From Candidatus Latescibacterota bacterium (GTDB taxonomy: Bacteria; Latescibacterota; UBA2968; GCA-2709665), in contig OZ241917.1 of NCBI GenBank assembly GCA_965203805.1, forward strand, positions 800,001 through 864,000: a stretch of DNA of 64,000 nucleotides. Direction: 5' to 3'. How positions within the stretch are numbered: position 1 is the stretch's first letter; each line of letters begins with the position of its first letter. Position numbers and translations under genes: made by a program. A model generated the notes under the pieces. The model made no database searches. It saw only the letters and a list, made by a program, of their open reading frames with translations, and had not been told where the DNA came from. This document shows, in pieces, positions 3,425 through 60,952 of the stretch.

Positions 3425-4672
3425 ATGGTAGAACCCGACGTCCGGCGGCACATGCGGGTCCGGCATACGGACTGGGGCGACGCTGTGCGCATCGATCTCA
3501 ACCAACTCGGCGCGCGGCTGCCCGCGCAGGGGGCGCCCGGCGCGACATGGTCGGAAGCAACCGGCGAGTCGTTGCTGGACGAATGGGCCGAAGCCCAGAA
3601 CGAAGCGCTGTGCGACACGATGGCGGACGTCGCCGCCTGCTCCGGAGGAGGCTTCGATTCGTTCGCTGAGTGGACGGTGCTGCACAACAGGCGGTACGAC
3701 GGCGCCCACATGCGCGAATTGCGGCGGAGACGGTTCCCCCAGGGCTACCGTGCCGCGATCACGACGCTCGGATGGGCGCATCCGGGAACCCCCCTTTCCA
3801 TGTCCATTCAGGCCGTGGCTTACGTGCCGAAAACCGGTGCTGGTTTCAAACAGGCCGTGTGGCGGCCTGAGTCGCTTTACGATACCGAATTCATGGCGCT
3901 CGCGCCCGCCGTGGTGACGGATTTCGGGGGAGGCCGGCAGATCCATCTGTCGGGCGTTGTCGCGTGGGACGAGCGGATTAATCCGCTCTTCGAAGGGCAG
4001 CCGGAGCGTCAGATCTCCCACGTATTCGACCTCATCCAGGACGTTTTCAGCGAATGCGGCGGATCCCTGGGGGACGTTGTGAGGCTGCGTCCATTCGCCC
4101 ACTCTTCGGAGATCGCGCGGATCATCCGGGCGGAAGTCAGCCGCCGGTGGGGGGGGCGTCCGAAGCCCGTGGTCATGATGTCGGACAGCCGGCATTTTGG
4201 CGACCCGCCCAGCCTGTATGCGGAAATACAGGTTCTGGGCGTGATGTCGGACGGCCAGTGTGGAGTACGACACCGGGAAGCGGAACTCCCCCGCGGGACG
4301 ATTGACGAAGACGCAACCCGCATCCGCTGCAGCCGCGCGCGTGAATGGGAAATGGTCCATGTGGGTGAATTACGCGGGCGCCCTGCCTCCGGTTGGAAGC
4401 GGGAGGCGGAGCAGGTCGCCGGGCAGATCAGCTCGGTTCTCGAACGGATGTCGCTCACACCGGACGACGTCTGTCTGACACTTGCCTATGTGAGTTCACC
4501 CGAAGCCGCCGCGGCCTTCCCGGAAACGGTGACCGGGGCGGTACCTGTAGAAACCGTGCACGTGCTGCCGTGTCCGGCAATGCCCGAATTGGACGGCCGC
4601 TGCATCAAGGTGGAGATGACGGCCCGAAGACGTCTGGATCCGGCCTCCCGGTCGCGCGCCGGGCCCGCCTGA
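3425..4672 (+). CDS. Protein with tandem Rid/YjgF-like domains
   Basis: The central domain QIHLSGVVA…QISHVFDLIQDVFSECGGSLGDVVRLRPF…AEIQVLG is Rid-like. The flanking segments end in similar motifs (MSIQAVAY, KVEMTAR). Confidence 0.6.
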   Translation: MVEPDVRRHMRVRHTDWGDAVRIDLNQLGARLPAQGAPGATWSEATGESLLDEWAEAQNEALCDTMADVAACSGGGFDSFAEWTVLHNRRYDGAHMRELRRRRFPQGYRAAITTLGWAHPGTPLSMSIQAVAYVPKTGAGFKQAVWRPESLYDTEFMALAPAVVTDFGGGRQIHLSGVVAWDERINPLFEGQPERQISHVFDLIQDVFSECGGSLGDVVRLRPFAHSSEIARIIRAEVSRRWGGRPKPVVMMSDSRHFGDPPSLYAEIQVLGVMSDGQCGVRHREAELPRGTIDEDATRIRCSRAREWEMVHVGELRGRPASGWKREAEQVAGQISSVLERMSLTPDDVCLTLAYVSSPEAAAAFPETVTGAVPVETVHVLPCPAMPELDGRCIKVEMTARRRLDPASRSRAGPA

Positions 4673-4788
4673 CGGGATGGCCGGTGAATGGTCGTTCTGC
4701 GCATGTTGCACGCGGGCCCTCGCGGGAACGATTCTCACCGCAGAAATGTCTAATGCATAGAGCGCAGTTTTTCATGATGGGGCTGGAA

Positions 4789-5679
4789 ATGCGTATATCG
4801 GCAACGGGATTGACAAAAGTCTATCCGAAGGGGACCGTACCCGCGCTGGACAACGTCGACCTGGAAGTCGGACGGGGGACGTTCGGTCTGTTGGGCCCGA
4901 ACGGTGCGGGAAAAACCACGCTGATCAAGGTTCTTTCAACACAGATGGCGCCAACGGCCGGTCACGTCAGGATCGGCGCCTGGGACCTGCAGAGAAACCG
5001 TTCCGAAGTGCGGCGGCGGCTGGGTTACCTTCCCCAGCACTTCGGAGCATATCCGCAACTGACGGCGTGGGAGTTTCTGGACTATATGGACCGGCTGGCA
5101 GCCGGGCGACGTCGGACCGGGCGGAGGGCGCGGGTGCGCGATGCGCTTGAAAACGTGGGGCTGTACGACGCGCGGGACCGACGGACCGGCGCCTTTTCCG
5201 GTGGAATGATGCGACGCCTCGGGATTGCTCAGGCCATTGTCGGCGATCCGGAAATCCTGATTGTGGACGAGCCCACCGTGGGTCTCGATCCGGAAGAACG
5301 CATCCGTTTTCGTGGGATTCTCGCGCGGCTGAGTCGGGACAGGACGATCCTGATTTCCACTCATATCGTAGGCGATATTTCGAGCACCTGCGATGACCTG
5401 GCGGTGCTGAATGAAGGGCGGATTATCTACAGGGGATCGCCCGATGCCCTGGTCGCTCGCGCGAATGACAAGACCTGGCGGGTACAGGCGGACGACGCGG
5501 AGTTCGACACGATATCCCGGCGATTTCTTGTTGTGACGGTCGCAGTGGACGGCGGACGAATGGACCTCCGGTTCGTGGGCGACGGCCAGCCGCCCGCCCA
5601 CGCCGAACCGGTACCGCCAAACCTCGAAGACGCATACGTGTATTTTATGGGCAGGGAGAGTCAGGAAAAGGCAGCCTAG
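4789..5679 (+). CDS. ABC transporter ATP-binding protein (ABC-2 / exporter type)
   Basis: Walker A GPNGAGKT, signature FSGGM, Walker B LIVDEPT and H-loop STH. The start was chosen at MRISATGLTKVY. Confidence 0.92.
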   Translation: MRISATGLTKVYPKGTVPALDNVDLEVGRGTFGLLGPNGAGKTTLIKVLSTQMAPTAGHVRIGAWDLQRNRSEVRRRLGYLPQHFGAYPQLTAWEFLDYMDRLAAGRRRTGRRARVRDALENVGLYDARDRRTGAFSGGMMRRLGIAQAIVGDPEILIVDEPTVGLDPEERIRFRGILARLSRDRTILISTHIVGDISSTCDDLAVLNEGRIIYRGSPDALVARANDKTWRVQADDAEFDTISRRFLVVTVAVDGGRMDLRFVGDGQPPAHAEPVPPNLEDAYVYFMGRESQEKAA

Positions 5680-5682
5680 GCC

Positions 5683-8600
5683 ATGGAAACGGTTTATACC
5701 GTATTGTCGGTCGCAAGATACGAGCGCAAGATGCTGATGCGGACGATCCGATTCCGGATCCTGGGCGGAATCGGCGTGCTCATTCCCGTTGCTCTGGGCG
5801 TCGGCCTGGCGATCGCGGAATCCAGAGGCATCGCATTCGAGTCTGTCAGCGGCATCGGCGCCTATATGCCCTTTTTCGTCTACAGTCTGCTGCAGACCGT
5901 CGTGATCGCGTTTATCGTTGGAGATTTCCGCGCCTCGGACGAGCGCGCCGGAATCTACGAAGTGGTTGCGGCCCGGCCGCTTTCTACGGCCGAACTGGTC
6001 ATGGGCAAATACCTGGGGGTCCTGGGGGCGCTGATTACGCTGAGCCTGGTCGTTCTGGTGCTCAGCCTGGCAGTGCAGGCGGCCAAGATCAGCGTTACCG
6101 GCGCGCCGTTTGCGATCCGACCTTATCTGACGTACCTGCTGCTGCTGAACCTCCCCGGGCTGGTCTATATGTCCGCTCTTACGTTTTTTTTCGGGGCGGT
6201 ATTTCGCCGGCAGGCCGCAGTGACCGTGCTGACCATCGCTTACGTCCTTATCGTTCTGCTGTTTCTTGGAAGGCGATACGGCGGTATCTACGATTTCGGC
6301 GCATTCTTCGCCCCGGTGTTCTACTCGGATATGCTCGGCCTCGGCGATATCCGGCGGGTGGTGGAGATCCGGGGCTTCTACACGTTTCTTGCCCTGTTTT
6401 TCTTTGGTTTGTCTATAGACCGGTATCCGCGGCTTCCTCAGTCCCGGGCCTGGCGCAGATTCGGTCGATGCCTGACCGCCGGCGGTTTCGTCGCCGCGGT
6501 GTGCCTGTACGCGTATATGGAAAGACGGGACTCGTCAGACCTCGCCTACCGGATGGCGCAACTGGAAGTCCAGGAAGGAATCGCCGGTCAGCCAATGTCG
6601 GCCGTTACGCATTATGCGCTCGACCTGGACCTCGCGAATGGCCGTACGCCACTGCGGGGCAGGGCGGTTCTCAGCGTTTCGAACCCTCACCCCGTAACGC
6701 TCGACACCCTCGTTTTCAGTCTCAACCCCGGGTTGGAATTGCAATCGGTGAATGCAGTTGCGGAGAAGGACGTCGATATCAGCTGGCAGCGTGAGTATTC
6801 TGTCGTGAGAATCGCGCGTCCGCTTAAGCCCGACAGTCTGGTGACGTTGGCGTTCGTTTACGACGGCTCGATCGACCTCAGCGGATTCGATCTGAGGCGA
6901 CATCCGGAAGCAAGACGCCTGCAGAAGCGGCGAACGGGGCCGGGAAGGAAAGGGGACCTGACCGCCTGGATCCGCCGGAACTCCGTATTCCTGCCGCCAC
7001 GCAGCAGGTGGTATCCCTCGCCGGGCGTGGACTACGGTCATCAGGATGGCCGCCCCCAGTCCTTCGCCACCGCAGATCTGGATATTGCGCTTCCCGCGGG
7101 ACTGGAAGTCGTGACCCAGGGTGTGCCGGTGGGCCGGAAGAAAGAGGGCGGCCGCGAGACTCATACTTGGAAAGTGGAACGCCCCGTACCCGTTCTTTCG
7201 CTCAACGCGGGCGTGTACCATGTCTTTCAGGCCGAAATCCACAATATCCAATGCGCCATATACGTACATCCGGCCCACGCCAGGCAGGTTACCTTCTTCC
7301 ACGACGCGAGGGACGACGCATTGAAAACGCTGGGCGAGATCCTGGATAGCGTTGAACAGGAAACCAGCCTGGCCTATCCGTACCAACGCCTGTCGGTTGT
7401 GGAGGTGCCATTCCAGGTACAGTGGTATTACGACGGATGGGAGGAGGCTGGCGGACTGGTGCAGCCCGGCGTGCTGATGCTGGAAGAGGACGTCCTGATG
7501 CGGCTGAATCTGCAACGCCGTCTGAAGTGGATGCAGCGGCGACAGCGGCGTAACGACGACCCTGCCAGAATCAAGCGGGACCTGCTGGTCAGGACGGTGC
7601 TGAACACGTTTCTCGCGCGGGAATCGACTCAAAGCGGCATCTACAGGAGTCCGGTGGCGCAACTCTGGTCGTTCAACCGGGGATTCGAAGGCGAACACTA
7701 TTCCCTGCTCAAACGCGGCATGCCAGTCTATATGCAGCAGAATCTCGGGACCACAATGCAACAGAGCTTCTACTCGAGGCGGGGACGGTTTCGAGGCCGG
7801 TTCCGGCGGAACAGGAGCGCGCGCGGCGTTTCCTGGGATACCGTAACGGCCAGGATGCGGCAGCGTTCTTTTGCGGAACTCGACCCGACTGCCGACGCGG
7901 AACTCTACCGGGCGGTCGTCGACGCCAAGGGCGCCTCCATGTTCGGAATGATGCAGGCCGTGGTGGGCGAAGATGCATTCAGAGACGTGGTCAGCGGATT
8001 CGAGGAGGCGAGCCGGCACGCGGGAGTCGACTTTGCGTCGTTTGAGCGCGCGGCTGTCGGCGATTCGTCGAGGCAGGCGGAACGGCCCAGCCTGAATCGA
8101 CTCGTCCGGGACTGGCTTCACGGCACCCAGGTTCCGGGCTACACCCTGACAAGGGCAAAAGCATATAAGGTGGACGACGGATGGGGCATGATGACGTATC
8201 AGGTCATCGTGCGTATCCGGAACGGCGAGCCGGGGCGCGGATTTGTCCAGATTCGAGCCATGGGGACCGAAGACGAGGCTGTCAAGGGCGTTGAGATCGA
8301 GGGCGGACAGGAGGTTGAGGTGGGACTGATCCTCTGGGAAAGGCCTTTGAGGATAAGCGTCGAGCCGTTCTTTGCTCGCAACCGCCGGGTCCTGATGGCG
8401 CCGTTACGCATACCCGAGCAACCAATGGAAGGATCGGCCGCGACCTATGTAAGGGAGGTCGCGCCGGACGAGACCGGATTGACCGAGATTATTGTGGACA
8501 ACGATGACGAAGGCTTCGAAATGCCGGTCCGCAGGGTGCGGCGCTATCTCCGTCCGCAGTTGAAAGGCGACAACTGGCAGGAACGCCAGATGCCGTTCTC

Positions 8601-9054
8601 TTTCGGCAGGTACGAAAACAACTACAGGTGGAAGAAACCGGGCGACGGCGCGCAACCGGCCGTCTGGACGGCCCGATTACCGCACAGCGGGGATTACGAC
8701 GTCTACTACTATTTCCTTCATCCCAGGTTCTCCAGGCGCATGCGTATGGCGTCGGAATTCAGTCTGGCCGTCTGTTACGGCGACGAGGTGGATACGCTGG
8801 CGGTCGAATCGAACAACCTGAAGGCCGGCTGGAACGTCTTGGGACGATACCGGTTCGAGGGCGGAGAACTGGCCCGGGTCGAGTTGTCCGACCGCGCCAA
8901 CGGCCGCCTTTACGCCGACGCGGTGCGCTGGCGATACGTGGATCCCGACCATCCGGAAGAGGTGTACGAAGAGGATCTGCCGACCTGGATTTTCGGTCAC
9001 GGCGGCCGGGGCGGTCGAGGCGGCGGCGGATCGCGGCGTGGGAGAAGCTGGTAA
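5683..9054 (+). CDS. ABC-2 permease fused to an M1-aminopeptidase-like fold (no HExxH) and a C-terminal golvesin/xanthan-lyase-CBM-like beta-sandwich
   Basis: About 7 N-terminal TM helices; M1-like segments (HYALDLDL, YPYQRLSVVEVP, KGASMFGMMQAVVGEDAF); C-terminal IIVDNDDEGF…GWNVLGRY…YADAVRW. Confidence 0.75.
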   Translation: METVYTVLSVARYERKMLMRTIRFRILGGIGVLIPVALGVGLAIAESRGIAFESVSGIGAYMPFFVYSLLQTVVIAFIVGDFRASDERAGIYEVVAARPLSTAELVMGKYLGVLGALITLSLVVLVLSLAVQAAKISVTGAPFAIRPYLTYLLLLNLPGLVYMSALTFFFGAVFRRQAAVTVLTIAYVLIVLLFLGRRYGGIYDFGAFFAPVFYSDMLGLGDIRRVVEIRGFYTFLALFFFGLSIDRYPRLPQSRAWRRFGRCLTAGGFVAAVCLYAYMERRDSSDLAYRMAQLEVQEGIAGQPMSAVTHYALDLDLANGRTPLRGRAVLSVSNPHPVTLDTLVFSLNPGLELQSVNAVAEKDVDISWQREYSVVRIARPLKPDSLVTLAFVYDGSIDLSGFDLRRHPEARRLQKRRTGPGRKGDLTAWIRRNSVFLPPRSRWYPSPGVDYGHQDGRPQSFATADLDIALPAGLEVVTQGVPVGRKKEGGRETHTWKVERPVPVLSLNAGVYHVFQAEIHNIQCAIYVHPAHARQVTFFHDARDDALKTLGEILDSVEQETSLAYPYQRLSVVEVPFQVQWYYDGWEEAGGLVQPGVLMLEEDVLMRLNLQRRLKWMQRRQRRNDDPARIKRDLLVRTVLNTFLARESTQSGIYRSPVAQLWSFNRGFEGEHYSLLKRGMPVYMQQNLGTTMQQSFYSRRGRFRGRFRRNRSARGVSWDTVTARMRQRSFAELDPTADAELYRAVVDAKGASMFGMMQAVVGEDAFRDVVSGFEEASRHAGVDFASFERAAVGDSSRQAERPSLNRLVRDWLHGTQVPGYTLTRAKAYKVDDGWGMMTYQVIVRIRNGEPGRGFVQIRAMGTEDEAVKGVEIEGGQEVEVGLILWERPLRISVEPFFARNRRVLMAPLRIPEQPMEGSAATYVREVAPDETGLTEIIVDNDDEGFEMPVRRVRRYLRPQLKGDNWQERQMPFSFGRYENNYRWKKPGDGAQPAVWTARLPHSGDYDVYYYFLHPRFSRRMRMASEFSLAVCYGDEVDTLAVESNNLKAGWNVLGRYRFEGGELARVELSDRANGRLYADAVRWRYVDPDHPEEVYEEDLPTWIFGHGGRGGRGGGGSRRGRSW

Positions 9055-9098
9055 ACCGTTGGACAACGTCAGACGATAACCCTTTTGCGAGGTGCAAT

Positions 9099-10175
9099 TT
9101 GAACAGGCGATTCCTGAGCGATTACTGCATTGCATTCACGGCTGTTGTCGTTGTAGCCGGCTGCGGCGGGCAAACCGAGCAGCGGTCCGTGGACCTGACC
9201 GTCCCGGTCACCGTCCAGGCCGTTCGCCTGGACACCATGGAGGCGACTGTGGCCGCCACCGGTACGCTCCGGCCCTCCCGGGAGGCCCGCATACAGACCG
9301 AGGTCGAAGGTATTCTTCAATATGTCGCCCGGGGCGTCGGAGGACGACCGAGCGAAGGAATGCGGGTCACCCGGAACCAGGAGATTGCCCGGCTGGTGAA
9401 CAAGGAGCTTGTCGTAAACGCACGCATGGAATCCCGGCAACTCGCACGCGCCACCGCGAAACGAACGCTGCGCGAGCAGGAGGTACTCGTTGAACGAAAG
9501 CTGGGCACGGAGAGAGACCTGGACGAAGCGCGCCGCGCCCTCGCCGAGGCCGAATCCAATTACGAAGACGCGCTCGTTCAGATCGCCAAGACGACAATCA
9601 GGACGCCAATCAGCGGTTTTCTGACGGGATTGGCCGACATTACAGAGGGTACGCTGGTGGAAGCCCGAACGACCATCGCTACCGTGATGGATTACAGACA
9701 GGTGCTCGTCGATCTGAAGATTCCAAACGCCTATATCGCATCCGTTTCACCCGGCCAGGTCGTGCGAGTGGAAAACTATGCATTGCCCGGAAGGCGGTTT
9801 CTGGGAACCATCAGGGTCGTGGACCCGGCCATCGATCCGGCCACGCGTACCTTCCGGGTCGTTGGGGCCGTGAAGAATCCGAACCTGATGTTGCGTCCCG
9901 GCATGTTTGTGAAAGCCGAGATTGTCACGGAGTCTCACGAAGACGCGGTGGTGATCCCTCGCCGCTTCGTCCTGACCCGCCGGAATCGCAAAGTGGTGTT
10001 CGTGGAAGCGGAGGGGAGGGCTCAGATGCGCGACGTGGAACTGGGTTTGGAGGGCCCCGAGCAGGTCGAGATTCTGGAAGGGCTTGAAGCGGGCGAGCGC
10101 CTCATTACCAGCAATTACGAGACGCTGCGCCCCCGTACCCGTGTGCGTGTAACCGGCGTGGGCGTGCAGCAATGA
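9099..10175 (+). CDS. RND efflux periplasmic adaptor (MFP), predicted lipoprotein
   Basis: TTG start after a GAGGT RBS; lipobox VAG-C; TIRTPISG, IDPATRTF and LRPGMFV motifs typical of MFPs. Confidence 0.88.
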   Translation: MNRRFLSDYCIAFTAVVVVAGCGGQTEQRSVDLTVPVTVQAVRLDTMEATVAATGTLRPSREARIQTEVEGILQYVARGVGGRPSEGMRVTRNQEIARLVNKELVVNARMESRQLARATAKRTLREQEVLVERKLGTERDLDEARRALAEAESNYEDALVQIAKTTIRTPISGFLTGLADITEGTLVEARTTIATVMDYRQVLVDLKIPNAYIASVSPGQVVRVENYALPGRRFLGTIRVVDPAIDPATRTFRVVGAVKNPNLMLRPGMFVKAEIVTESHEDAVVIPRRFVLTRRNRKVVFVEAEGRAQMRDVELGLEGPEQVEILEGLEAGERLITSNYETLRPRTRVRVTGVGVQQ

Positions 10176-10408
10176 ATGCGAATACCGTGCGCACGTCGCC
10201 GGGAGCGCCCGTCGCAATTTTCCGGTAACGGTTCGCCGCGGACGGAACATCATTCGAAATCATCGGGTAAGTTGTCGTTTGGACCCCTCTGGGGCCCAGG
10301 GACTGCGTGTGGGCCTTCCGGAGGGTTTTTTTTGATCTTGATCCGTCCCTTCTCGGGGACGTCAATTCGAGTATATGCAAGCGGATCTCATTACTAAGGG
10401 CCGATACC

Positions 10409-13400
10409 ATGCCATTGCCCGAATTTTCGACGAAATATCCGGTAACGGTTGCCATGGCAACGCTGGCCGTCGCGCTCCTGGGCTGGATTTCGCTGGAGCG
10501 GCTGGAAGTGGACCTGCTTCCCGACCTGCGTTCTCCCGTGATTACCGTGGACCTGCGATTTCCGGGCAAAACCCCCAGGGAGATGGAGGAACGATATGCG
10601 CGTCGTCTGGAAGGGGATATCGGCACGGTACGCCACGTCAAACGCGTTCACTCCGTGTCCCGTTCCGGGCAGGCCGTGGTGATCGCGGAATTTGAATGGG
10701 ATGCGGACATGGATTTCGCGCTGCTCGATGTGCAGAAGAAAGTGGCGCGGTACGCTTCGGATCCCGATATCACGAGTCTGGACGTCACACAGGAAGACCC
10801 CCAGGCGTTGCCGGTGATGCGTCTGGCCGTCTCGGGAGCGGACTGGCAGGATCCTGATGAACTGCTGGGCAACGCGGAAACCGTCATCCGGCCCAAACTC
10901 GAGGGGTTGTCCGGGGTGGCTTCGGTGGAAATCGAGGGGGGAGCCGAAAAAGAAATCCGGATCACACTGGATTCCTATCTCCTTCAAGCATTCGGAGTCA
11001 CTTCGGAGACGGTCGTCTCGCGGATACGTGAAGCCAATTCGGATGTCTCCGGCGGAACGTTGAAAGACGGACAACGTACCTATCTGGTCAAAGGCCTGGG
11101 ACGTCTGACCGACTTGGCAGACGTGAACAACCTGGTTGTCGGTGAGCGCCGCGGCGAATCTTCGAATGGCGGGGAAGACGCCTCGACCCAGCGCGTGCCC
11201 GTCACGGTAAGCGATGTGGGTACGGTAGGCCTGCTATATAAGGAGAGGGAAACCATCGTGCGCCTCGACGGCTTGGAGTGCGTCGGGCTTTCCGTTTACA
11301 AGGAAGCCGGCGCGAATACCTCGTCGGTGGTCAACGGGGTTCTCGGGGAACTGGAAAGACTCGAGGCCGATCTGACCGGCATCCGGTTTACGGTGGTGGA
11401 GAACCAGGCCCGCTTCGTCGAAAACGCGGTAAGTGAAGTGGAAGAGGCGGCCGTTCTTGGCGCCTTGCTTGCAGTGGGCGTGTTGCTGGCTGCGCTCCGG
11501 CAGTGGACCGCCACGCTGGTGATCGGACTCGCCATACCGATTTCCGTTCTGGCCACGTTCACGCTGATGTATTTCCAGGGGCTGACGCTGAACGTCATGA
11601 CCCTGGGCGGCCTGGCGCTGGGCGCCGGCATGCTGGTGGACAACGCCATTGTCGTGATTGAGAACATCTACCGGCACCTCGAGAGGGGAGAAACGGCCGC
11701 AGAGGCCTCCGTCAGAGGCGCCAGTGAGGTCGGGGTCGCGATTCTGGCGTCCACGTTGACCACGGTGTCCGTGTTTCTGCCCATTGTCTACCTCCACGGG
11801 TTGGCGGGCGAACTCTTCAAGGAACAGGCCTGGACGGTCGCGTTCTCGCTGGTTTCGTCTCTCGCGGTGGCGATGACCGTGGTGCCCATGCTGACCGCCC
11901 GGCTCTTCAGGCGGTATCCGCGACGGTCCGCAGGGATCGCGGGGGCGCGGTCCTTCAGGCGTTTTCTAAGCCGTTCACTCAACCATAAGGGACGTACGAT
12001 GGCGGTGCTCGCGGCCTGCCTGCTGGCCGCCTTCTATATGGCAAGGTCCATCCATACGTCTTTTATCCCCACGGAAGACGAGGGTGTGCTCCACGTGGAT
12101 CTCGCGCTGCCGGAGGGCACGCGACTCGAGTCGACAGACAGGGTGGCGAGGCGAGTTGCCGCCATTACCCAGGCGGTTGCCGGAGAGGAAGCGCGCCACA
12201 TCTACCTGCGGGTTGGAACCGATCCGAACCGGTTTACCGCGGTGGGAGAACCCACCGGCCCGAACAGAGCCGAACTGACGGTCGTGCTGGGCCGGCAGGC
12301 GGACCGTCGCAGCGTCTCCGAACTCACCACGGTTCTGGATACAGCCCTCCTCGAAGTCCCTGACATTAAGGTTAATTATCGGCTTCAAAAAGCTGCATTG
12401 GAAGGACTTATACGAGGTCACACTGCGCCGGTCCAGGTCGAGGTCAGCGGTGAGAACCTGGACCTGCTTCGGGAATTGACCACAGATCTGAAGCGGCGAA
12501 TGGACGCGTTGTCCACGGTGTATAACGTGCGGACCAGCTTTCAGGACGGTCAGCCCGAGGTAGACGTGGTACTGCGACCGGATATCACCGCCGCGTTCGG
12601 GCTTACCTCACAGAATCTCGTGCGCGAACTCGAGCGCAGGCTCGGCGGCGAGGAAGCCGGAGAACTCTCCAAGGACCAACGGGCGCGAACGATCCGGGTT
12701 GGGTTCGAGGACGTGGACCTTCGGGAACTGCAGCACGCGAGAATCGACGGTCCCGACGGGGCGATGCTCACGCTGGGAGATCTCGCCGACCTGCGGGTCG
12801 TGCAGGGTCCAAGGGAAATCCTGCGGGACGGTCAGCGCAGGGTGGGGCGGGTGTCCGCCTTCCTGACCGACGGTGTGGTCTTGAGCCAGGCGGCAACGCA
12901 AATCAGGCAGGCAGTGGGACAGATGGCCATCCCGCACGGATACCAGGTGACCGTAACCGGAGAGGAACGGGAGCGGGCCGAATCATTCGGCGGCCTGCAA
13001 TTCGCCCTTCTGCTTTCGGTGGTGCTCGTCTATATGGTCATGGCTTCGCTCTTCGAGTCTCTGCTTCATCCGTTTACCGTCATGCTGACGGTGCCGCTGG
13101 CGGGCATCGGCGTGGTATTCGCATTCTGGAGCCTGGGAGAAGCGTTCGGCGTGATGGCGTTCATCGGCGCGATCATGCTGGGCGGTATCGCCGTTAACGA
13201 CGCCATCATTCTGGTGGACCACATCAACCAGTTGCGGCGCGAGGCGGGCGACGTGCGACAGGCCGTACTCCAGGCCGCGCAGGATCGGCTGCGTCCGATC
13301 CTGATGACCAGCGCCACGACCATTCTGGCGCTGTTGCCCATGGCGGTGGGCGTCGGCGAAGGCGCGCGCCTGCGGGCCCCGATGGCGGTGGCCGTTATCG

Positions 13401-13492
13401 GCGGTCTGGTCACGTCCACATTGATGACCCTTGTGGTGATTCCCGTCGTTTACGAACTGATTGAAGGGCTCAGAAGGAGGAGGGCGGCGTGA
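10409..13492 (+). CDS. RND transporter permease subunit (AcrB/AcrD/AcrF family)
   Basis: GMLVDNAIVVIENI (TM4), RLRPILMT and PMAVAVIGGL motifs; about 1027 aa. Confidence 0.93.
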   Translation: MPLPEFSTKYPVTVAMATLAVALLGWISLERLEVDLLPDLRSPVITVDLRFPGKTPREMEERYARRLEGDIGTVRHVKRVHSVSRSGQAVVIAEFEWDADMDFALLDVQKKVARYASDPDITSLDVTQEDPQALPVMRLAVSGADWQDPDELLGNAETVIRPKLEGLSGVASVEIEGGAEKEIRITLDSYLLQAFGVTSETVVSRIREANSDVSGGTLKDGQRTYLVKGLGRLTDLADVNNLVVGERRGESSNGGEDASTQRVPVTVSDVGTVGLLYKERETIVRLDGLECVGLSVYKEAGANTSSVVNGVLGELERLEADLTGIRFTVVENQARFVENAVSEVEEAAVLGALLAVGVLLAALRQWTATLVIGLAIPISVLATFTLMYFQGLTLNVMTLGGLALGAGMLVDNAIVVIENIYRHLERGETAAEASVRGASEVGVAILASTLTTVSVFLPIVYLHGLAGELFKEQAWTVAFSLVSSLAVAMTVVPMLTARLFRRYPRRSAGIAGARSFRRFLSRSLNHKGRTMAVLAACLLAAFYMARSIHTSFIPTEDEGVLHVDLALPEGTRLESTDRVARRVAAITQAVAGEEARHIYLRVGTDPNRFTAVGEPTGPNRAELTVVLGRQADRRSVSELTTVLDTALLEVPDIKVNYRLQKAALEGLIRGHTAPVQVEVSGENLDLLRELTTDLKRRMDALSTVYNVRTSFQDGQPEVDVVLRPDITAAFGLTSQNLVRELERRLGGEEAGELSKDQRARTIRVGFEDVDLRELQHARIDGPDGAMLTLGDLADLRVVQGPREILRDGQRRVGRVSAFLTDGVVLSQAATQIRQAVGQMAIPHGYQVTVTGEERERAESFGGLQFALLLSVVLVYMVMASLFESLLHPFTVMLTVPLAGIGVVFAFWSLGEAFGVMAFIGAIMLGGIAVNDAIILVDHINQLRREAGDVRQAVLQAAQDRLRPILMTSATTILALLPMAVGVGEGARLRAPMAVAVIGGLVTSTLMTLVVIPVVYELIEGLRRRRAA

Positions 13493-16400
13493 TTCTCCCC
13501 GATCTTGCGGTCCGGCGGCCCGTAACGACGTCGATGTTCTTTGCCGCATTCGCCATATTGGGAGTCGTGTCGTGGACGAGGCTTCCGGTACAGCTTTTTC
13601 CGGAGTTGATCTTTCCGGAAGTGTTCGTCACGCTGTCGCTGCAGGGGGCATCTCCGGAACAGGTGGAACGAGATCTGCTGGTTCCCGCTGAAGGGGAGAT
13701 CGGCAAACTGGACGGCGTCCAGGAGATGGAGTCGTTCGCGATGGCCAACAGGGGAGGTATTCGCATATCCTACGCGCCCGACGTGGATATGAAGTTCGCC
13801 CTGCTTCAACTGCAGAGCAACCTGAACAGACTGCAGCCGACGCTGCCCGAGCGTACTCAGTCCGACGTCAGGAGGTTCGATTCGACGGATCTCAGCAGCA
13901 GCATTATGGAGCTTCACGTGCTCGCCGACTGGGACCTGAACCCGTTGCGGGAGTTCACGGAAGAAAAAATCCGGCCCGAACTGGAGTCAGTCGACGGTGT
14001 CGTCAATGTGTCCGTGTTGGGCGGACGGCGCAGCGCCGTTGAAATCGTCCTGGATCCGTTCCTGCTCGAGGCGCATGGCCTTTCGACGGGACAGGTTCGG
14101 GCACGCCTGAACAGCTATAACCGGCGGCGTGAGTACCTGGGGCGCGTATTCGACGGGAATCGGGCCTATTCGGTGAGCATTCAGGGGCAGTTTACGGACC
14201 TTCGTCAGATTCGCGATCTCGTCCTGAACGCGGACGGCACGCTCAGGCTGGGCGACGTTTCCCGGGTGGGATTCGGACTCCAGGAACAGGCCGATCGGCA
14301 CAGAGTCAATGGAAGACCGTCGGTGGGCGTCCGCATCCAGAAGGACGACGAAGCGAATCTGATCGAGGTTGCCGCGGCGGTCGAAGCCGCCATCGGCAGG
14401 CTGAATCGCGACTTCAAGAGCGCGGGTGTGGAACTGGGCGTGAGTTCCTCACAGGCGGATCTGATGACCGGAGCGCTTTCCACCCTGAAGCAGGCGGCCA
14501 TTGCCGGCGCCGTGCTCGGACTGATCGTGCTCTTTCTGTTTCTTCGGAACCTTCGTTTCGTTTCGGTCCTCCTGCTGGCCATACCGATTTCTCTCCTGAT
14601 GACCTTCAATCTGATGTACCTCGGCGGGCTGTCCGTCAACGTGCTGTCTCTGTGCGGTCTCGCCCTGGCGATGGGCATGCTTGCTGACAACGGCATCGTG
14701 GTGATGGAAAATATCTTCAAGCACTACGAGCGGGGAAAGTCGCCCGCCGACGCGGCACGGGACGGGGCGGCCGAGGTCGGGCGCGCCGTGGTTGCGGCAA
14801 CCGCAACAACCGTAACCGCATTCCTGCCGGTTCTGTTCATCGAGAGCGACGCGCGGGACCTGCTGCGGGAACTCGCGTTGTCCATGGCGTTTCCGCTGCT
14901 GGCGTCGTTGCTCGTGGCCCTGACGCTGGTTCCGGCCCTCGCCGTCCGGGCGTTGAGCCGCGGGGTCCGACAGCCTCCGGACGTTCGCGGGTTGCTCGAA
15001 CGGTATACGCTGCTGCTGAAGACTGCTCTGCGCCACCGCGCATCGGTGGTCCTGTCCGCAGGAGTGGCGCTCGCGTTGACACTCGTGTTGGCGTTCTTCT
15101 ACCTGCTGCAACAGCAGGTACGCAGGGAGGAGACACGTTTTACGGTCTACGTGAACCTTCCGGAAGGAGCCACGCTGGACGCGACGGACGAGGTCGTGAA
15201 ACAGGTGGAGGCATCCGTACGGGACGTGCCCGGTCTGGACCGGTTTACGACGTCGGTCCGTGAGGCGGAAGCCGACGTGAATGTATTGCTAGACAGACGT
15301 TCTGACCGGCCCGGCGGCATCTCGCTGGATGAAATCAAAGAGCAACTCGACGACAAACTGCAGAATGTACGGGGAGGGGTTGTCGGATACGAAGCCAGGC
15401 CCCGCGCGGGGAGGGGCGGGCGCGGGCAGGGGATCGGACAACGTCGGAGACGCAGTTCCGGAGGATTCGATCTGACCGGGGCCACGCCGAACGAACAGGT
15501 TGTGGTTCGAGGATACGACTTCACGATACTGACGATGATTGCCAATGACCTGGTTTACCGCCTCGAAGAACTGGAGGAGGTGGATGCCAACAGCGTACGC
15601 GCCGACGCCGAACGGAGTTCGCCCGAGGTGCAGGTGATACCCGATGCGGCCGCCCTGTTCGACCGGCGGCTCGGCGCACAGGAAGTGCTCGCCGCCATGG
15701 GTGACACCCGTTGGGACGGGTTTCGCACAACGGTCCCGTTCCTGCTGCCCGATGCAACCGAGGTACCCATCGAAGTGCGTACGATCGAAGAGGAGGACCG
15801 CGACCGCTACGGGCTGGCTGAATTCAGGGGTTCACGCATTCTGAACCGGGACGGGCATTACGTACCTCTGTCCGAAGTGGCGAGGGTCCGGACGGATGAG
15901 GGCCGGAGCAGCCTGTTGCGGACCGACCAGACCCGTCGGATTGTGGTTTCCTACCGGTATCCTTCGGAGATTCTGGATTCCCAGCCGCGGTTGGATCTTG
16001 CGAGACGGGTCGTGCGAACGACGCTGCAGGACATGGTTCTGCCGGAGGGGTATTCGATCGAAATCATCGAGGCGCACGAGGAGATGATCTACTATTGGAT
16101 GATGGCGGTCGCAGCTGTACTCATCTATATGATCCTGGCGTCGCTGTTTGAGTCTTTCGCCTCGCCGATCATCATTCTGTGTACGCTGCCGCCCGCGGCC
16201 ATCGGCTCCTGCTGGGCGCTGATGATGTCGGGCACGGGCCTGAGCCAGCAGGAGGGACCCATGGCGCTTCTGGGACTTATCGTCCTGCTGGGTATTGCGG
16301 TGAACAACGGCATCATCCTGATCGACGCGGTCGGCGTGCTCAGGACCCGATTCGGCTTTCGACGGGAACGCGCGGTGCTGACCGCGGCGCGGTCGCGTGT

Positions 16401-18201
16401 TCGACCCATCCTGATGACAACGGCCACGACGCTTCTGGGCGTTCTTCCACTGGCGCTCGAATACGGCGGCGATTTTGAAATCTGGCCGCCGTTCGCAATT
16501 ACCGTTCTGGGCGGGCTGTCGGTTTCCATGGTCTCCACGCTGATCCTGATTCCGGTGGTCTACATGGGACTGGATCAGATCGGCGCCTGGCTTGCCGACA
16601 TGGGGGTTATCGCCGTCACGCTGTCGCTGCTGGCGACCGCCGCGGCCGGGTATGGCGTTTATGTGCGGTACGAAAGCGTTTTCTGGGCAACGCTGTCGAT
16701 ATTGCCCATCTGGGGCGCGTGTCTGGCAGCGGTATGGACCGTCCTGAAAATACACCGCGCCCGGGTCGCGGCCCGGCGGGTATCCGGCGCCGTTCATTCC
16801 ATACAGCTGAGAAATCTTACCAAGGTCTACGGCGCGCCCGGGCGGTTTGTACGGGAGTGGGCGCGCAACGAGCGCCGGCGAGGGCGGATGATGGAAACCG
16901 GTCCGGAGCCACACGACCGCAGGGCGGTCCGTGACGCGCTCATCTGGAAGCTGCCGTTGCTCGCGCTGTTGTCGGTCTTCACGACCTATTTCGAGGACGA
17001 GATCTGGATCTATCTGCACGGGCTGGCGCTGGCATCCATGATTGCGCACGTGGGGAGATGCGTCGGAGACCTGAGAGAAAGGCAACTTCCGGCGCCGATC
17101 GCCCGCATTGGCGCCCTGCTGCTCAAAGCCGTGCTGCCATTGACGTTTGTCGGCTACGTGCACTTGCGGCTGAACCTGCTTTCTGTCACACTTGCCACGT
17201 TCGGGCTGTGGGTCGTCTATCGACTGGTGCGGTGGCTCGCCGACAGGGTACGTTCCGGGGAGATCGATCCCGATGCCTTGTCCGGACGTCTGGCGCGGCC
17301 GCGCATGTGGAGCTATCGAATGGCCTCGGCCATGCCGATCGTCGGCGTCCCCCGGCCGGAGTTTCGGGCGCTGGCGGGCGTCAACCTGGAAATCGGCAGG
17401 GGGATGTTCGGGCTACTGGGCCCCAACGGCGCCGGCAAGACCACATTGATGCGCATTCTCTGCAGGGTACTCGAACCCAGTTACGGCTCCATTCTGATCG
17501 ACGGTCGAAACGTCCTGAACAGGGGATCGATTCACGGTCTGATCGGCTACCTGCCGCAGCATTTCGGCAACTACGGACACCTTTCCGCATACGAGTATCT
17601 GGAATACCGTGCACTTCTGGAGGGTTACAAAGACCGGAAAATTCGGGACGCCCGGGTGATCGAATCCCTGGAACAGGTCAATCTGATCGAACGGAAAGAC
17701 GATCCCGTCGGCTCGTTTTCAGGCGGAATGAAGCAGCGCCTCGGCATTGCCCAGACCCTCCTGCACACCCCGCTGATCGTGGTGGTGGACGAGCCCACGG
17801 CGGGTCTCGATCCGCTGGAGCGCATCCGGTTCCGCAACCTGCTTGCCAGGTTGAGCCAGGATCGCATTGTCATTTTCTCCACGCACATCGTGGAAGATAT
17901 CTCCGGAAGCTGCAATCGTCTGGCAGTACTGGACCATGGGTGTCTTCTGTATACGGGAACACCGGAGGAAATGAGGAATCTGGCGACGGGACGGGTGTGG
18001 GACACGGTGGTATCGGAGCGGCGTTTTTCGGAGATGGAGGACAACCTTAAGCTCATTTCGCATCAGCGAACGCCCGGCGGGGTCCGGATGCGGTTCCTGT
18101 CGGAACACGCGCCGGTCGATATCGGCGCGCAGAGCGTGGACCCAACTCTGGAAGACGCGTACCTGTACCTGCTTGGCGGAGGGGAGGGACAGCCGTGCTG
18201 A
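13489..18201 (+). CDS. RND permease fused to a C-terminal ABC ATPase domain
   Basis: RND motifs (GMLADNGIVVMEN, RVRPILMT), then GPNGAGKT, FSGGMKQR, VVVDEPT and STH. The start overlaps the previous stop (GTGA); 1570 aa. Confidence 0.9.
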   Translation: MILPDLAVRRPVTTSMFFAAFAILGVVSWTRLPVQLFPELIFPEVFVTLSLQGASPEQVERDLLVPAEGEIGKLDGVQEMESFAMANRGGIRISYAPDVDMKFALLQLQSNLNRLQPTLPERTQSDVRRFDSTDLSSSIMELHVLADWDLNPLREFTEEKIRPELESVDGVVNVSVLGGRRSAVEIVLDPFLLEAHGLSTGQVRARLNSYNRRREYLGRVFDGNRAYSVSIQGQFTDLRQIRDLVLNADGTLRLGDVSRVGFGLQEQADRHRVNGRPSVGVRIQKDDEANLIEVAAAVEAAIGRLNRDFKSAGVELGVSSSQADLMTGALSTLKQAAIAGAVLGLIVLFLFLRNLRFVSVLLLAIPISLLMTFNLMYLGGLSVNVLSLCGLALAMGMLADNGIVVMENIFKHYERGKSPADAARDGAAEVGRAVVAATATTVTAFLPVLFIESDARDLLRELALSMAFPLLASLLVALTLVPALAVRALSRGVRQPPDVRGLLERYTLLLKTALRHRASVVLSAGVALALTLVLAFFYLLQQQVRREETRFTVYVNLPEGATLDATDEVVKQVEASVRDVPGLDRFTTSVREAEADVNVLLDRRSDRPGGISLDEIKEQLDDKLQNVRGGVVGYEARPRAGRGGRGQGIGQRRRRSSGGFDLTGATPNEQVVVRGYDFTILTMIANDLVYRLEELEEVDANSVRADAERSSPEVQVIPDAAALFDRRLGAQEVLAAMGDTRWDGFRTTVPFLLPDATEVPIEVRTIEEEDRDRYGLAEFRGSRILNRDGHYVPLSEVARVRTDEGRSSLLRTDQTRRIVVSYRYPSEILDSQPRLDLARRVVRTTLQDMVLPEGYSIEIIEAHEEMIYYWMMAVAAVLIYMILASLFESFASPIIILCTLPPAAIGSCWALMMSGTGLSQQEGPMALLGLIVLLGIAVNNGIILIDAVGVLRTRFGFRRERAVLTAARSRVRPILMTTATTLLGVLPLALEYGGDFEIWPPFAITVLGGLSVSMVSTLILIPVVYMGLDQIGAWLADMGVIAVTLSLLATAAAGYGVYVRYESVFWATLSILPIWGACLAAVWTVLKIHRARVAARRVSGAVHSIQLRNLTKVYGAPGRFVREWARNERRRGRMMETGPEPHDRRAVRDALIWKLPLLALLSVFTTYFEDEIWIYLHGLALASMIAHVGRCVGDLRERQLPAPIARIGALLLKAVLPLTFVGYVHLRLNLLSVTLATFGLWVVYRLVRWLADRVRSGEIDPDALSGRLARPRMWSYRMASAMPIVGVPRPEFRALAGVNLEIGRGMFGLLGPNGAGKTTLMRILCRVLEPSYGSILIDGRNVLNRGSIHGLIGYLPQHFGNYGHLSAYEYLEYRALLEGYKDRKIRDARVIESLEQVNLIERKDDPVGSFSGGMKQRLGIAQTLLHTPLIVVVDEPTAGLDPLERIRFRNLLARLSQDRIVIFSTHIVEDISGSCNRLAVLDHGCLLYTGTPEEMRNLATGRVWDTVVSERRFSEMEDNLKLISHQRTPGGVRMRFLSEHAPVDIGAQSVDPTLEDAYLYLLGGGEGQPC

Positions 18202-18917
18202 ACTGGCGGGAATTGCTGCTGACCACGTGGCGGCTTTATCGGCTGAGCTGCAGGATCATATTCCACAGGAAATTGATGTTCATGGGCATCGGCCTTCTCG
18301 TCTATTACGCCGCCATGTACGCGTTCGCGGTGTGGCGCCCCGACGAGGGGTTCGGCGTATCGCAGGCGCTCAACGTCCTGGTTGAAATCCCCGGTATTGC
18401 GCTTGCCATTTATCTGACGATGGATCTCGTTGCGGGCGAACGAGACCGGAATACACTTGAAACCCTGTTCAGCACAACCTCTACCCATTACAAGATCTGG
18501 ACGATCCGGATGGTGGGGGTGTATCTGGTTCTGGCGGGAACCCTCATGGGAATGACGGTGGTCGCGTATTTCGTCTTCGCCGAACTTCCGATTTTCCGGG
18601 GCGGGTTGAATGCTTTTCTGCCGGCATGTCTTGCCGCCGGACTCACGTTCTACTTCTCCGTTCTCTGCCGAAGCGGCAACGCGGCCGCAATGCTCGCGAC
18701 CGGGGTGATGGTCCTGGCTCTGGTCGTTTCGAAGTCCCTGCCCGATTCTCCCTTCGTGCTCTTTCTGGACACGTTCGATCCACCGGTGGGCATGGAAGAC
18801 ACGCTTTGGGGCGACCGGGTCCTGCTGAATCGTCTGGCCGTCGTGCTGCTGTCGGGCTTGCTGCTTTTTATCGGTCTACGCAGAATGGAAGCAAGGGAAC
18901 GGCTGGTATCTTCGTAG
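18195..18917 (+). CDS. ABC-2 type membrane permease
   Basis: About 6 TM helices and a GERDRNTLETLF motif; overlaps the upstream stop codon. Confidence 0.75.
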   Translation: MLNWRELLLTTWRLYRLSCRIIFHRKLMFMGIGLLVYYAAMYAFAVWRPDEGFGVSQALNVLVEIPGIALAIYLTMDLVAGERDRNTLETLFSTTSTHYKIWTIRMVGVYLVLAGTLMGMTVVAYFVFAELPIFRGGLNAFLPACLAAGLTFYFSVLCRSGNAAAMLATGVMVLALVVSKSLPDSPFVLFLDTFDPPVGMEDTLWGDRVLLNRLAVVLLSGLLLFIGLRRMEARERLVSS

Positions 18918-18964: not shown

Positions 18965-20107
18965 CTATTCTTTTCTTACGTCCAGCCGGACTTTTCGGGG
19001 CGCTACGTTCACGACCGCCAGATCGGTCCCATGCCTGATCGACTCGACGCCGAACTCGAACGTCCTGCGCCCGATCCCGACGTAGCCGGCATCGATTACG
19101 AGCCGAAAGGCGTCTTTGGGCGCGAGCAGAAGGGCGCGTCGGGGACCCTTCACAGTGACGTCTACGGCGGCTGGTCTCACGCTCTCCAGTGCATATCCGC
19201 CCGGCAGATTCTCCACGCCGACCGCCACTTCATACGTCGCTTCCTGGACCGACGCGCCCGGCACCAGAAAGACCCATGCGCCGAACGCCAGCGCGAGGGA
19301 GAGCACGCCTTCCGAGAGATGCCGCGCCAGCCTGCCCCGACCGGTCTTGGGCGCACTGCGGACCGCATGCTGCGCGTGCTCCTGCAACCTGGAAAGCAGT
19401 TCGTCGGGGTCGTTAACGATTTCCAGTCGACCCCGACGCGCGACGGCGATGGTGCCGCGCTCCTCGGAAACGACCAGGCAGAGGGCGTCGCTGCGTTCTG
19501 TCAGCCCGAGCGCCGCGGCGTGGCGAGTTCCTCCCGGCCCGAGTTCGCTGCGGTTTTCCGACAGCGGCAGATGGACGGCAAAACGCTCCAGCCGGTCTTC
19601 CCTCATCACCAGCGCCCCGTCGTGACCGGCCGAAGTCGTGCCGAACAGGCTGTCGATGAGCTCCTCGCTGATCGTGGCATGCAGTACAATCCCGCCCTGC
19701 AGGAGCCGGTCGAGCGGTTCCCGTCCGGGCAGGACCACCAGGCCGCCCCGCCGATTCGCCGCCAGTTGATGCATTGCGCGAACCAGAACCGCCAGACTCC
19801 CGCCGTGGGGCCGAGATGCCCTTCTGCCCAGGCCCAGTGCGGCAATCTGCTCGAAGAGCCTCCGCAGGTCGTCCTGGAAGACAACAACCAGCAGCACGAC
19901 GAGGACGGCAAAGAACCCCTGGAATATCCACGCCGTCAGCTGCAGTTCGAACTGGCGCGCCAGGAGATAGAAAGCGCCCAGAAACGCAAGCCCGACCAGC
20001 GCCATGCGGGCGTGCATCCTCCGGGTCCAGGCCAACAGCCCCCAGAACAGCGCGCCCACCACCGCTATGTCCACGAAATCTGAAAATGTGACCTCAAGCA
20101 GCGTCAT
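18965..20107 (-). CDS. cdaA: Diadenylate cyclase CdaA fused to a YbbR-like domain
   Basis: Three N-terminal TM helices, VVFQDDLRR, catalytic HDGA and GTRHAAA motifs and VSEERG, then a TM helix and a YbbR-like beta domain. Confidence 0.85.
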   Translation of the reverse strand: MTLLEVTFSDFVDIAVVGALFWGLLAWTRRMHARMALVGLAFLGAFYLLARQFELQLTAWIFQGFFAVLVVLLVVVFQDDLRRLFEQIAALGLGRRASRPHGGSLAVLVRAMHQLAANRRGGLVVLPGREPLDRLLQGGIVLHATISEELIDSLFGTTSAGHDGALVMREDRLERFAVHLPLSENRSELGPGGTRHAAALGLTERSDALCLVVSEERGTIAVARRGRLEIVNDPDELLSRLQEHAQHAVRSAPKTGRGRLARHLSEGVLSLALAFGAWVFLVPGASVQEATYEVAVGVENLPGGYALESVRPAAVDVTVKGPRRALLLAPKDAFRLVIDAGYVGIGRRTFEFGVESIRHGTDLAVVNVAPRKVRLDVRKE

Positions 20108-60946: not shown

Positions 60947-60952
60947 GGTAAC

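Follow-up and report, generated by a model that had tools for sequence, protein, structure and literature searches.

Six co-oriented genes on the plus strand of a Candidatus Latescibacterota genome, designated here g1 to g6, encode side by side the parts of a resistance-nodulation-division (RND) efflux pump and of ATP-binding cassette (ABC) transporters, and in one of them, g5, an RND protein and an ABC ATPase are joined in a single chain. The genes occupy positions 4789-18917 of a stretch of 64,000 nucleotides (positions 800,001 to 864,000 of contig OZ241917.1, assembly GCA_965203805.1), called the window throughout; the genome is a single contig of 5.87 Mb. This composite of parts of a tripartite RND pump and of ABC-2 transporters is real and conserved, and it is apparently undescribed; its mode of energy coupling is potentially new. 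Full-text searches, which did not cover subscription-only papers, returned no description of an RND-ABC fusion or of permease-M1 proteins, and the portions consulted of PMC10434189 and PMC3764172 concern ordinary Bacteroidetes efflux genes only.

An earlier note on this DNA had described six co-oriented, mostly tightly coupled genes and had assigned their parts. Open reading frames and profile searches with Pfam and NCBIfam, with starts and junctions checked, bear out every one of these parts (Table 1), and the description of the coupling is fair. Only 3 nucleotides separate g1 from g2 and 44 separate g2 from g3, g4 and g5 overlap by GTGA, and g6, which overlaps g5 by 7 nucleotides, is translationally coupled to it. 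The sole sizeable gap of the operon (10176-10408) lies between g3 and g4 and measures 131-233 nucleotides, depending on the choice of g4 start. A 1-nucleotide deletion at 10326 in a strain variant (run X5) favors the later start, ATG 10409, which is probably the true one. The gap has no match in Rfam and no promoter-like site; the whole window gave zero Rfam matches, and a scan for promoters and terminators returned fewer sites than in shuffled sequences.

Table 1. Features of the operon and its immediate neighbors, in window coordinates (TM, transmembrane; aa, amino acids)
Feature	Position	Strand	Description and evidence
g1	4789..5679	+	296 aa; free ABC ATPase; start ATG 4789
g2	5683..9054	+	1123 aa; long ABC-2 permease: six TM helices, seventh TM helix, predicted periplasmic part of ~840 aa
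g2, M1-aminopeptidase-like region without zinc site	6538..8571	+	profile A5 against PDB sequences
g2, Golvesin_C/carbohydrate-binding-type β-sandwich domain, then Gly/Arg-rich tail	8572..8928	+	Golvesin_C 57.6 bits (cut-off 31.6)
g3	9099..10175	+	RND-type lipoprotein periplasmic adaptor (membrane fusion protein); start TTG
g4	10307..13492	+	unfused RND permease; start more likely ATG 10409
g5	13489..18201	+	1570 aa; RND fused to ABC ATPase; single open frame
g5, RND body, residues 1-1029	13489..16575	+	ACR_tran 598.8 bits, residues 5-1027, profile positions 3-1019 of 1021
g5 tail, two extra membrane helices past RND TM12	16606..16779	+	model helices 11-31 and 35-68; hydropathy; conserved in 33 aligned tails
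g5, split first ATPase β-strand with A-loop Y1114	16798..16830	+	model strand E75-85; K1112 and Y1114 invariant in 33/33 tails
g5, insert between ATPase strands 1 and 2	16843..17331	+	amphipathic helix, four long hydrophobic helices, short helix
g5, ATPase remainder, Walker A to C-terminal domain and stop codon	17362..18201	+	ABC_tran 93.3 bits, residues 1297-1438
g6	18195..18917	+	240 aa; small ABC-2 permease
Upstream neighbor	3425..4672		415 aa; partial RidA/L-PSP match only
Downstream neighbor, cdaA (diadenylate cyclase)	18965..20107		convergent to the operon

Reality, Spread, and Expression of the RND-ATPase Fusion

The central observation is the fusion itself. With residues 1030-1570 of g5 as the query, PF00873 and PF00005 occur together in every one of the 120 best protein clusters. 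In 108 of these the protein has a length of 1486-1646 aa, and linker and ATPase are between 99% and 39% identical to those of g5. The source names of these clusters include Latescibacterota, Gemmatimonadota, Acidobacteriota, KSB1, and Calditrichota, and partial proteins add Bacteroidales, Spirochaetales, Aminicenantes, and Zixibacteria. Among 168 Latescibacterota genomes, the fusion is found in 82, with one match each (E ≤1e-90) in open frames of ~1570-1600 aa; in good-quality genomes of the phylum the figure is 34 of 52.

Independent sequence reads tell the same story. Contigs from DNA runs of two studies extend over 4600-17441 (75 differing letters) and 4600-17058 (63 differing letters); they have no insertion or deletion in g5, and both run across the joint between the RND body and the linker. 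From an RNA library whose sample is shared with one of the DNA runs, contigs of at least 99% identity bridge g2/g3 (8897-9358), g4/g5 (13259-13649), the RND/linker joint (16212-16785), and g5/g6 (18141-18602), and a second RNA library contains a 93-95% relative of g1, the g1/g2 junction, g2, and g6. Seven studies have near-identical DNA for window positions 13000-18950 in their metagenome runs, which come from sponge, coral, and marine samples, so that the organism appears to be a marine invertebrate-associated Latescibacterota bacterium.

The earlier note had allowed that the fusion might be an assembly artefact. That two genes were joined here by a sequencing error is extremely improbable. 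Short-read contigs do break at 17403-17460, the Walker A region common to many ABC genes, and nothing else was found in favor of such an error, but the same open frame recurs in well over 100 independent assemblies and the contigs of two studies pass the joint intact. The length-conserved clusters, the phylum-wide open frames, and the bridging contigs together rule the artefact out, and the fusion is genuine.

Architecture of the Joint

Beyond the last helix of its RND body, g5 continues with two further membrane helices, then with the first β-strand of the ATPase, and then with a membrane insert that parts this strand from the remainder of the domain. The split strand reads IQLRNLTKVYG and lies within an Arg/Lys-rich stretch. 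The insert measures ~160 residues, its helices falling at residues 90-108, 112-137, 142-167, 173-199, 202-226, and 240-252 of an AlphaFold2 model of the g5 tail (mean pLDDT 79.3, pTM 0.61; 60-87 for the insert block, model residues 91-260); its loops are Arg/Lys-rich on the cytoplasmic side and short on the outer side, as judged from the sequence. The helix count, 12 + 2 + 4, is even at each step, so that the ATPase should remain cytoplasmic, and the positive-inside pattern of these helices fits that placement.

Despite the interruption, the ATPase appears catalytically intact. The 33 fused tails aligned, from the window and from distant loci, all agree in Walker A (G1311-T1319), Q1357, the signature (S1411-Q1416), D1434-E1435, and H1466. 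Structural alignments of the model to solved ATPases begin at model residues 73-75 and resume past the insert; 4yer_B (TM_1403) aligns with a Z score of 28.7 and 1vpl_A (TM0544) with a Z score of 27.6 (root mean square deviation 1.6 Å, 234 of 238 residues aligned). In the model, the detached first strand thus docks in its canonical place in the ATPase. The nearest solved chains found with Foldseek are TM_1403 (4yer), NosF of NosDFY, and the nucleotide-binding domains of ABCA proteins, that is, the ABC-2/type V class.

The linker seems to exist only as part of the fusion. A search with its 265 residues alone found 48 proteins at E ≤0.001 among 1.84 billion representatives, and in all full-length matches (1559-1590 aa) it stands at about residues 1020-1296, behind an RND body. 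A free-standing module of six membrane helices and an ATPase was sought among shorter proteins and discarded, as these are mostly fragments at contig ends. Of the short matches on long contigs, ten were examined, and no clear independent module is among them: P0133 and P0134 look like internal-deletion forms, P0138 has a late start, and the other seven are collinear with g5 from residues 766-1264 onwards, in its C-terminal part. A search of the Protein Atlas with the linker was uninformative (best score 0.80). The idea that the tail helices are a hidden ABC-2 domain gained nothing from a profile comparison with g6 (hhalign, E 0.42), and the results of a structural search were dominated by the ATPase.

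As a separate observation, P0133 and P0134 join RND residues ~600 to 753 straight to fusion residue 1079 onwards; they look like internal-deletion derivatives or mis-assemblies.

The RND Pump Components

The remainder of the RND machinery comprises an adaptor and an unfused permease. The adaptor g3 matches RND_mfp (TIGR01730) at 188.8 bits (cut-off 94.9) and HlyD_D23 at 88.2 bits; its TTG start is preceded by GAGGTG, and it has the lipobox VVAGC. Unfused g4 matches ACR_tran at 752.3 bits over profile positions 3-1020 of 1021 and is 34% identical to the g5 body. For both RND bodies the best solved relative is Escherichia coli MdtB (9lyq_B for g4), with E values of 6.9e-99 for g4 and 6.5e-84 for g5. 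Neither reaches the NCBIfam cut-off of RND_permease_2 (627.4 and 515.9 bits for g4 and g5, cut-off 1250) or those of the MdtB and MdtC equivalogs (375.6 and 402.8 bits for g4, 332.5 and 363.2 bits for g5, cut-offs 1584 and 1774). By analogy with MdtBC, g4 and g5 may form an RND heterotrimer.

In AcrB, protons are relayed through D407 and D408 in TM4, K940 in TM10, and R971 in TM11. One of the TM4 aspartates is kept in both g4 and g5 (V/A-D-N, V-D-N in g4), and both retain the TM11 motif RxRPILMT (RLRPILMT in g4); TM10 reads V-N-D in g4 and N-N in g5, with no lysine in either. Residues D400, N401, N939, N940, and R972 of g5 are invariant in 20 fusions. The suggestion that the fused RND protein has lost its proton relay as a special feature was abandoned: the D-N/N-N pattern is common to 5 of the 11 other RND paralogues of the genome, all unfused, and is therefore a common variant, from which no loss of proton coupling in the fused copy can be read.

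The porter region of g5 also has a Gly/Arg-rich stretch on the periplasmic side (residues 636-660, window 15394-15468; RPRAGRGGRGQG...), and the consensus of 20 fusions has a Gly-rich insert at this position.

The ABC Components

Two ATPases are encoded in the operon, and both have Walker A, the Q-loop, the signature, Walker B with the catalytic glutamate, the H-loop, and an A-loop aromatic residue. The free ATPase g1 (ABC_tran 108.2 bits, cut-off 25) is of the ABC-2/DrrA-GldA-like class; both it and g5 fall short of the GldA equivalog of NCBIfam (174.4 and 160.1 bits, respectively, cut-off 402.6). All 15 operon orthologues examined preserve its Walker A, Q-loop, signature, Walker B, and H-loop. 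At 45% identity, the fused ATPase has g1 as its best paralogue in the genome, the next being at 39%. A quick maximum-likelihood tree of 60 ATPase cores, from which no row was dropped after selection, places the 33 fused copies in one clade (SH-aLRT 99) and groups fused and free operon-type copies together (97), apart from five other paralogues of the window genome; the fused and the free ATPases are sister clades that track the same lineages. This topology points to an old duplication and, within the sampled sequences, to a single fusion event.

Both permeases score below the Pfam cut-offs (g2, ABC2_membrane_3, 28.1 of 31.6 bits; g6, ABC2_membrane_2, 19.9 of 27.2 bits), yet their six predicted helices, a coupling motif, and collinear profiles point to the ABC-2 class. 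In g6, with six hydrophobic segments, the coupling motif, which reads ERDRNTLETLF in the window, follows TM2 and is common to 26 aligned orthologues, in which D84, E89, F92, Y99, K100, and R105 are invariant; the related motif of g2 is DERAGIYEVVAARP. Comparison of the two membrane-domain profiles (hhalign) aligns 216 collinear columns, weakly (E 4.4e-4, probability 34%).

A large ectodomain follows the membrane domain of g2. Hydropathy and the positive-inside pattern give six helices, an Arg-rich loop, and a seventh helix, a count that should place the last ~840 residues in the periplasm. The greater part of this ectodomain resembles M1 aminopeptidases. Its own Pfam match to Peptidase_M1 is weak (17.9 bits, cut-off 27.7), and the cut-off is passed by its relatives in three other loci (L098, L104, and L059); a profile of the ectodomain retrieves from PDB sequences the Deinococcus M1 enzyme (6a8z/6iff, E 3.8e-7) and tricorn factor F3 (E 1.2e-6), as well as aminopeptidase N and ERAP1 (E up to ~1e-4). 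Neither the zinc site HExxH-(x18)-E nor the exopeptidase motif GxMEN is present in any of 22 operon-type sequences (g2 of the window and 21 relatives), so that g2 is probably not a peptidase and the term "permease-pseudopeptidase," used in the earlier note, is a fair name. A stand-alone g2 relative in L104 (1216 aa; Peptidase_M1 53.3 bits) retains the site as HEMAH. The C-terminal end of g2 matches by profile the C-terminal module of Paenibacillus xanthan lyase (6f2p, E 2.7e-11).

The C-terminal tail of g2, which would lie on the periplasmic side as well, is Gly/Arg-rich (window 8995-9051; GHGGRGGRGGGGSRRGR).

Conservation of the Gene Set and the Outer Membrane Channel

Largely the same genes accompany the fusion in the loci compared. 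The synteny set comprises 37 loci, 15 from genomes and 22 from metagenomes, in which the fusion gene is complete and the upstream DNA measures 9.5 kb or more; searched by tblastn with the window proteins, all 37 have g2, g3, and g4, and 35 have g1, with no room for it in L042 and a relocated copy in L017. The small permease g6 was found in 30 of the 34 loci with room for it, and at the four misses an open reading frame of 233-241 aa stands in its place and aligns with the g6 family. Three genomes of one genus (G081, G091, and G084, the source of L017) have an operon that begins with g2, and in them g1, 65-67% identical, lies 0.4-1.35 Mb away.

The association extends to the phylum as a whole. 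Of the 168 Latescibacterota genomes, 76 have both the fusion and the g2 ectodomain, 6 the fusion only, 4 the ectodomain only, and 82 neither, so that the g2 domain occurs in 76 of 82 fusion-positive vs 4 of 86 fusion-negative genomes; related genomes are not independent, and this agreement is a description rather than a test. The 10 discordant genomes are 58-97% complete. Co-occurrence of the ABC and RND genes, on which the earlier note had made its reading depend, is thus seen both in synteny and in gene content.

The same note had remarked that no TolC-like gene lies in the cluster. This is true of the window: no OEP domain occurs in it, and the genome's 14 OEP-domain matches, in seven genes, all lie outside 800001-864000, the nearest at contig position ~1.34 Mb. 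It is not true of the system. In a distant form of the operon (RND part 31-34%, ATPase 52-58% identical to the window), a TolC-family (OEP) gene of ~500 aa stands between g2 and g3 in 22 of 22 metagenome loci (4 + 18), and it is found in the same place in two distant Latescibacterota genomes (L107 and L108). The presence of this gene in the distant loci points to a tripartite envelope pump. The six-gene form without an OEP gene is that of the window, L001-L015, L017, L109, and L110, and in one of its relatives (G146, L111:1443-2927) an OEP gene (215 bits) directly follows and overlaps g6. This last protein is 49% identical to an OEP of the window genome encoded at 5,556,982-5,558,289 (5.557 Mb) beside another RND pump. 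An orthologue of the OEP of the seven-gene type was sought in the window genome, and the best match was only 28% identical, giving no assignment among the seven OEP genes. The absent channel gene is, as far as these comparisons indicate, a feature of the lineage, which would have lost or moved it.

A Proposed Tethered Relay and Its Alternatives

RND pumps draw on the periplasm or the outer leaflet, to which ABC-2 exporters bring substrates from inside, so that a tethered pair suggests a two-step relay across the envelope. The reading tentatively favored here, at somewhat below an even chance, is that the conserved, expressed operon encodes one composite envelope-spanning exporter in which an ATP-driven ABC feeder is tethered to an MdtBC-like RND pump. 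Its core would be an MdtABC-like tripartite pump made of the adaptor g3 and the RND paralogues g4 and g5, with an outer membrane channel that most lineages encode within the operon and that the window's lineage would encode elsewhere. Past TM12, g5 holds, behind two membrane helices, an intact ABC-2-class ATPase split by a four-helix membrane insert; g6 is made together with it, and the sister ATPase g1 and the long permease g2 complete the set. With ATP as fuel, the tethered ABC-2 unit or units would carry substrate out of the cytoplasm or the inner leaflet and deliver it at the outer face of the inner membrane, where the adjacent, proton-driven RND trimer would take it up and pass it through the adaptor and the TolC-type channel to the outside. 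The g2 ectodomain, with its zinc-less M1-like and sugar-binding-type domains, may serve as a binding or docking module. Since both engines look intact and the ATPase has a translationally coupled ABC-2 permease, an ordinary tethered ABC-2 unit is suggested rather than an ATPase acting on the RND pump.

Several observations weigh against this relay. Its protein-protein contacts are predicted from the gene set. One locus (L098:9965-16147) has a stand-alone module in which a g1-like ATPase is accompanied by a g2-like permease, zinc-less and with Golvesin_C, and by an OEP gene; tblastn over 10 kb to each side of it detects neither an RND nor an adaptor gene. Extra g2-like copies in several genomes likewise show that the g1-g2 pair can exist apart from an RND pump. 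A short fusion of 1426 aa (L059:2394-6674) lacks the extra membrane helices and has just a soluble insert of ~60 residues to part strand 1 from strand 2. A g2-like gene stands before it and an OEP gene after it, and g6 is absent; neither the six helices nor g6 is therefore universal. TM10 of both RND proteins is without the lysine of the classical AcrB relay, and proton coupling is thus assumed. The RNA contigs fit co-transcription, and RNA libraries can contain DNA. Finally, the neighboring genes include no biosynthetic genes that hint at a substrate.

The earlier note had gone further and proposed one complete heterodimeric ABC transporter. This special case of the relay, in which g1 and the fused ATPase would pair over g2 and g6 and be tethered to a heterotrimer of two g4 and one g5 subunits, is possible and, in so definite a form, doubtful. 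The substrate that the note suggested, such as a peptide, glycan, or lipid, is conjecture. The mismatch between a threefold RND pump and a twofold ABC transporter speaks for it, together with the second, unfused RND paralogue present in 37 of 37 operons, for in a trimer with one fused subunit the lone fused ATPase would need g1 as its partner. The two ATPases are, moreover, mutual closest paralogues, g2 and g6 are distant collinear paralogues, and g1 is still there in genomes whose operon no longer contains it. However, both ATPases have full consensus sites, neither being degenerate, g1-g2 modules (with or without an OEP gene) occur alone, and the short fusion of L059 lacks g6. From the full consensus sites, the L098 module, and the extra g2-like copies, two separate homodimeric ABC units are equally possible. 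Independence can also be carried to its conclusion: g1-g2 might be a mechanotransducing ABC system of the NosDFY kind, operating its periplasmic pseudo-peptidase in some other task, the fused ATPase with g6 a small exporter, and the RND pump a machine of its own, the fusion serving only for co-localization or equal dosage. The lone g1-g2-type modules (that of L104 has an active M1 site, HEMAH, and that of L098 has none), the appearance of NosF among the nearest ATPase folds, and the fact that gene fusions can be neutral are all consistent with such co-encoded machines. They are nevertheless unlikely in view of a gene set fixed in 37 loci from at least five phyla by source names, the agreement in presence and absence across the phylum (10 genomes discordant among 168), and an operon that has one shared adaptor and one OEP gene.

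A more radical possibility is that ATP binding and hydrolysis by the fused ATPase act, by way of the six extra helices, on the RND transmembrane domain and so power or gate its cycle, either instead of protons or along with them. The covalent link leads straight on from TM12 and stems from a fusion of single origin kept across phyla, the A-loop strand is wired between membrane segments, TM10 is without lysine, and the short form of L059 joins the ATPase to the RND protein even without the extra helices and with no g6 beside it. Against these stand the D-N/N-N pattern, which 5 of 11 unfused paralogues share and which is thus no special loss, the translationally coupled ABC-2 permease with its coupling motif, which is the ordinary partner of such an ATPase, and the dimeric nature of ABC ATPases as compared with the trimeric RND pumps. 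An ATP-driven RND pump is therefore distinctly unlikely. The same low probability attaches to its fullest form, a true dual-energy pump in which the split ATPase, held to the RND transmembrane domain by the six extra helices and partnered by g1, would mechanically couple ATP hydrolysis to the RND cycle, so that one machine would be powered by ATP as well as by the proton gradient. Its cargo might be, for instance, a large molecule bearing peptide or glycan, which the dead-peptidase ectodomain would hold during passage across the whole envelope.

Relation to Known Systems

A review (PMC8277102) describes MdtBC as a heterotrimer, rare among RND proteins, whose subunits come from two genes accompanied by a single adaptor. 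The operon resembles MdtABC-TolC in that two adjacent RND paralogue genes stand behind one adaptor gene (the order g3-g4-g5), in that, among solved structures, MdtB comes nearest to both RND bodies in sequence, and in the TolC-family channel present in most of its lineages. It differs in the six extra helices and ABC ATPase of g5, in its three further ABC genes, in scores for g4 and g5 far below the MdtB/MdtC equivalog cut-offs, and in TM4 (D-N) and TM10 (no lysine).

NosDFY, of the ABC-2/type V class, provides another point of comparison. The fused ATPase folds nearest to TM_1403, NosF, and the ABCA nucleotide-binding domains, which have a C-terminal domain, and the operon permeases have six TM helices, an E-R-x-x-G/N-T-x-E coupling motif, and a large periplasmic module tied to a permease. 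In the operon, however, this module is fused to the permease and is M1-like instead of a NosD β-helix, and there is, in addition, an RND-fused ATPase, an adaptor, and a TolC-type channel. MacAB-TolC likewise combines an ATPase, a periplasmic adaptor, and a TolC-family channel in one system. MacB is a type VII ABC protein, an FtsX-type four-helix domain with its own periplasmic domain, whereas Pfam reports no FtsX-type domain for g2 or g6, the adaptor here is of the RND type, and two RND proteins are present. A close parallel to g1-g2 is the stand-alone pair of L104, an ATPase and a permease/M1 gene with the same two-gene architecture and an ATPase that groups with g1 in the tree. That pair keeps HEMAH, whereas g2 and its 21 operon-type relatives are without HExxH, end in Golvesin_C, and lie within an RND operon.

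Insertion into an ABC ATPase between strands 1 and 2 also has a precedent. The regulatory insertion of CFTR NBD1 occupies this position as a short, disordered, soluble loop. The insert of g5 stands at the same place but measures ~160 residues and forms four membrane-length helices, a natural case of an ABC ATPase whose first strand is parted from the rest by membrane helices.

Tripartite efflux is taught as running either on the proton gradient, through an RND exporter, or on ATP, through an ABC exporter. Here both kinds of exporter belong to one fixed gene set and are covalently joined in one protein, in about half of the 168 Latescibacterota genomes and, by source names, in Gemmatimonadota, Acidobacteriota, KSB1, Calditrichota, and Bacteroidales. 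Cooperation between cytoplasm-facing and periplasm-facing pumps has been proposed for separate transporters. If the parts of this operon assemble, it would give direct evidence of substrate hand-over from the one kind of pump to the other; alternatively, it would represent a new mode of energizing an RND pump. The g2 family, in addition, represents a large family of dead M1 peptidases employed as transporter ectodomains. One might also speculate that the organism, which occurs in the microbiomes of sponges and corals, uses the system to export a product related to symbiosis.

Genomic Setting

The two genes that flank the operon, the 415-aa open reading frame and cdaA (Table 1), are kept as its neighbors in close relatives only. 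Elsewhere in the window, on the minus strand at 47989-63634, very large open reading frames stand in a row. Two of these (1547 and 999 aa) are without a Pfam match, another of 1365 aa matches only DUF2283, and one of 893 aa encodes an Eco57I/MmeI-type methylase; this region may be a defense island.

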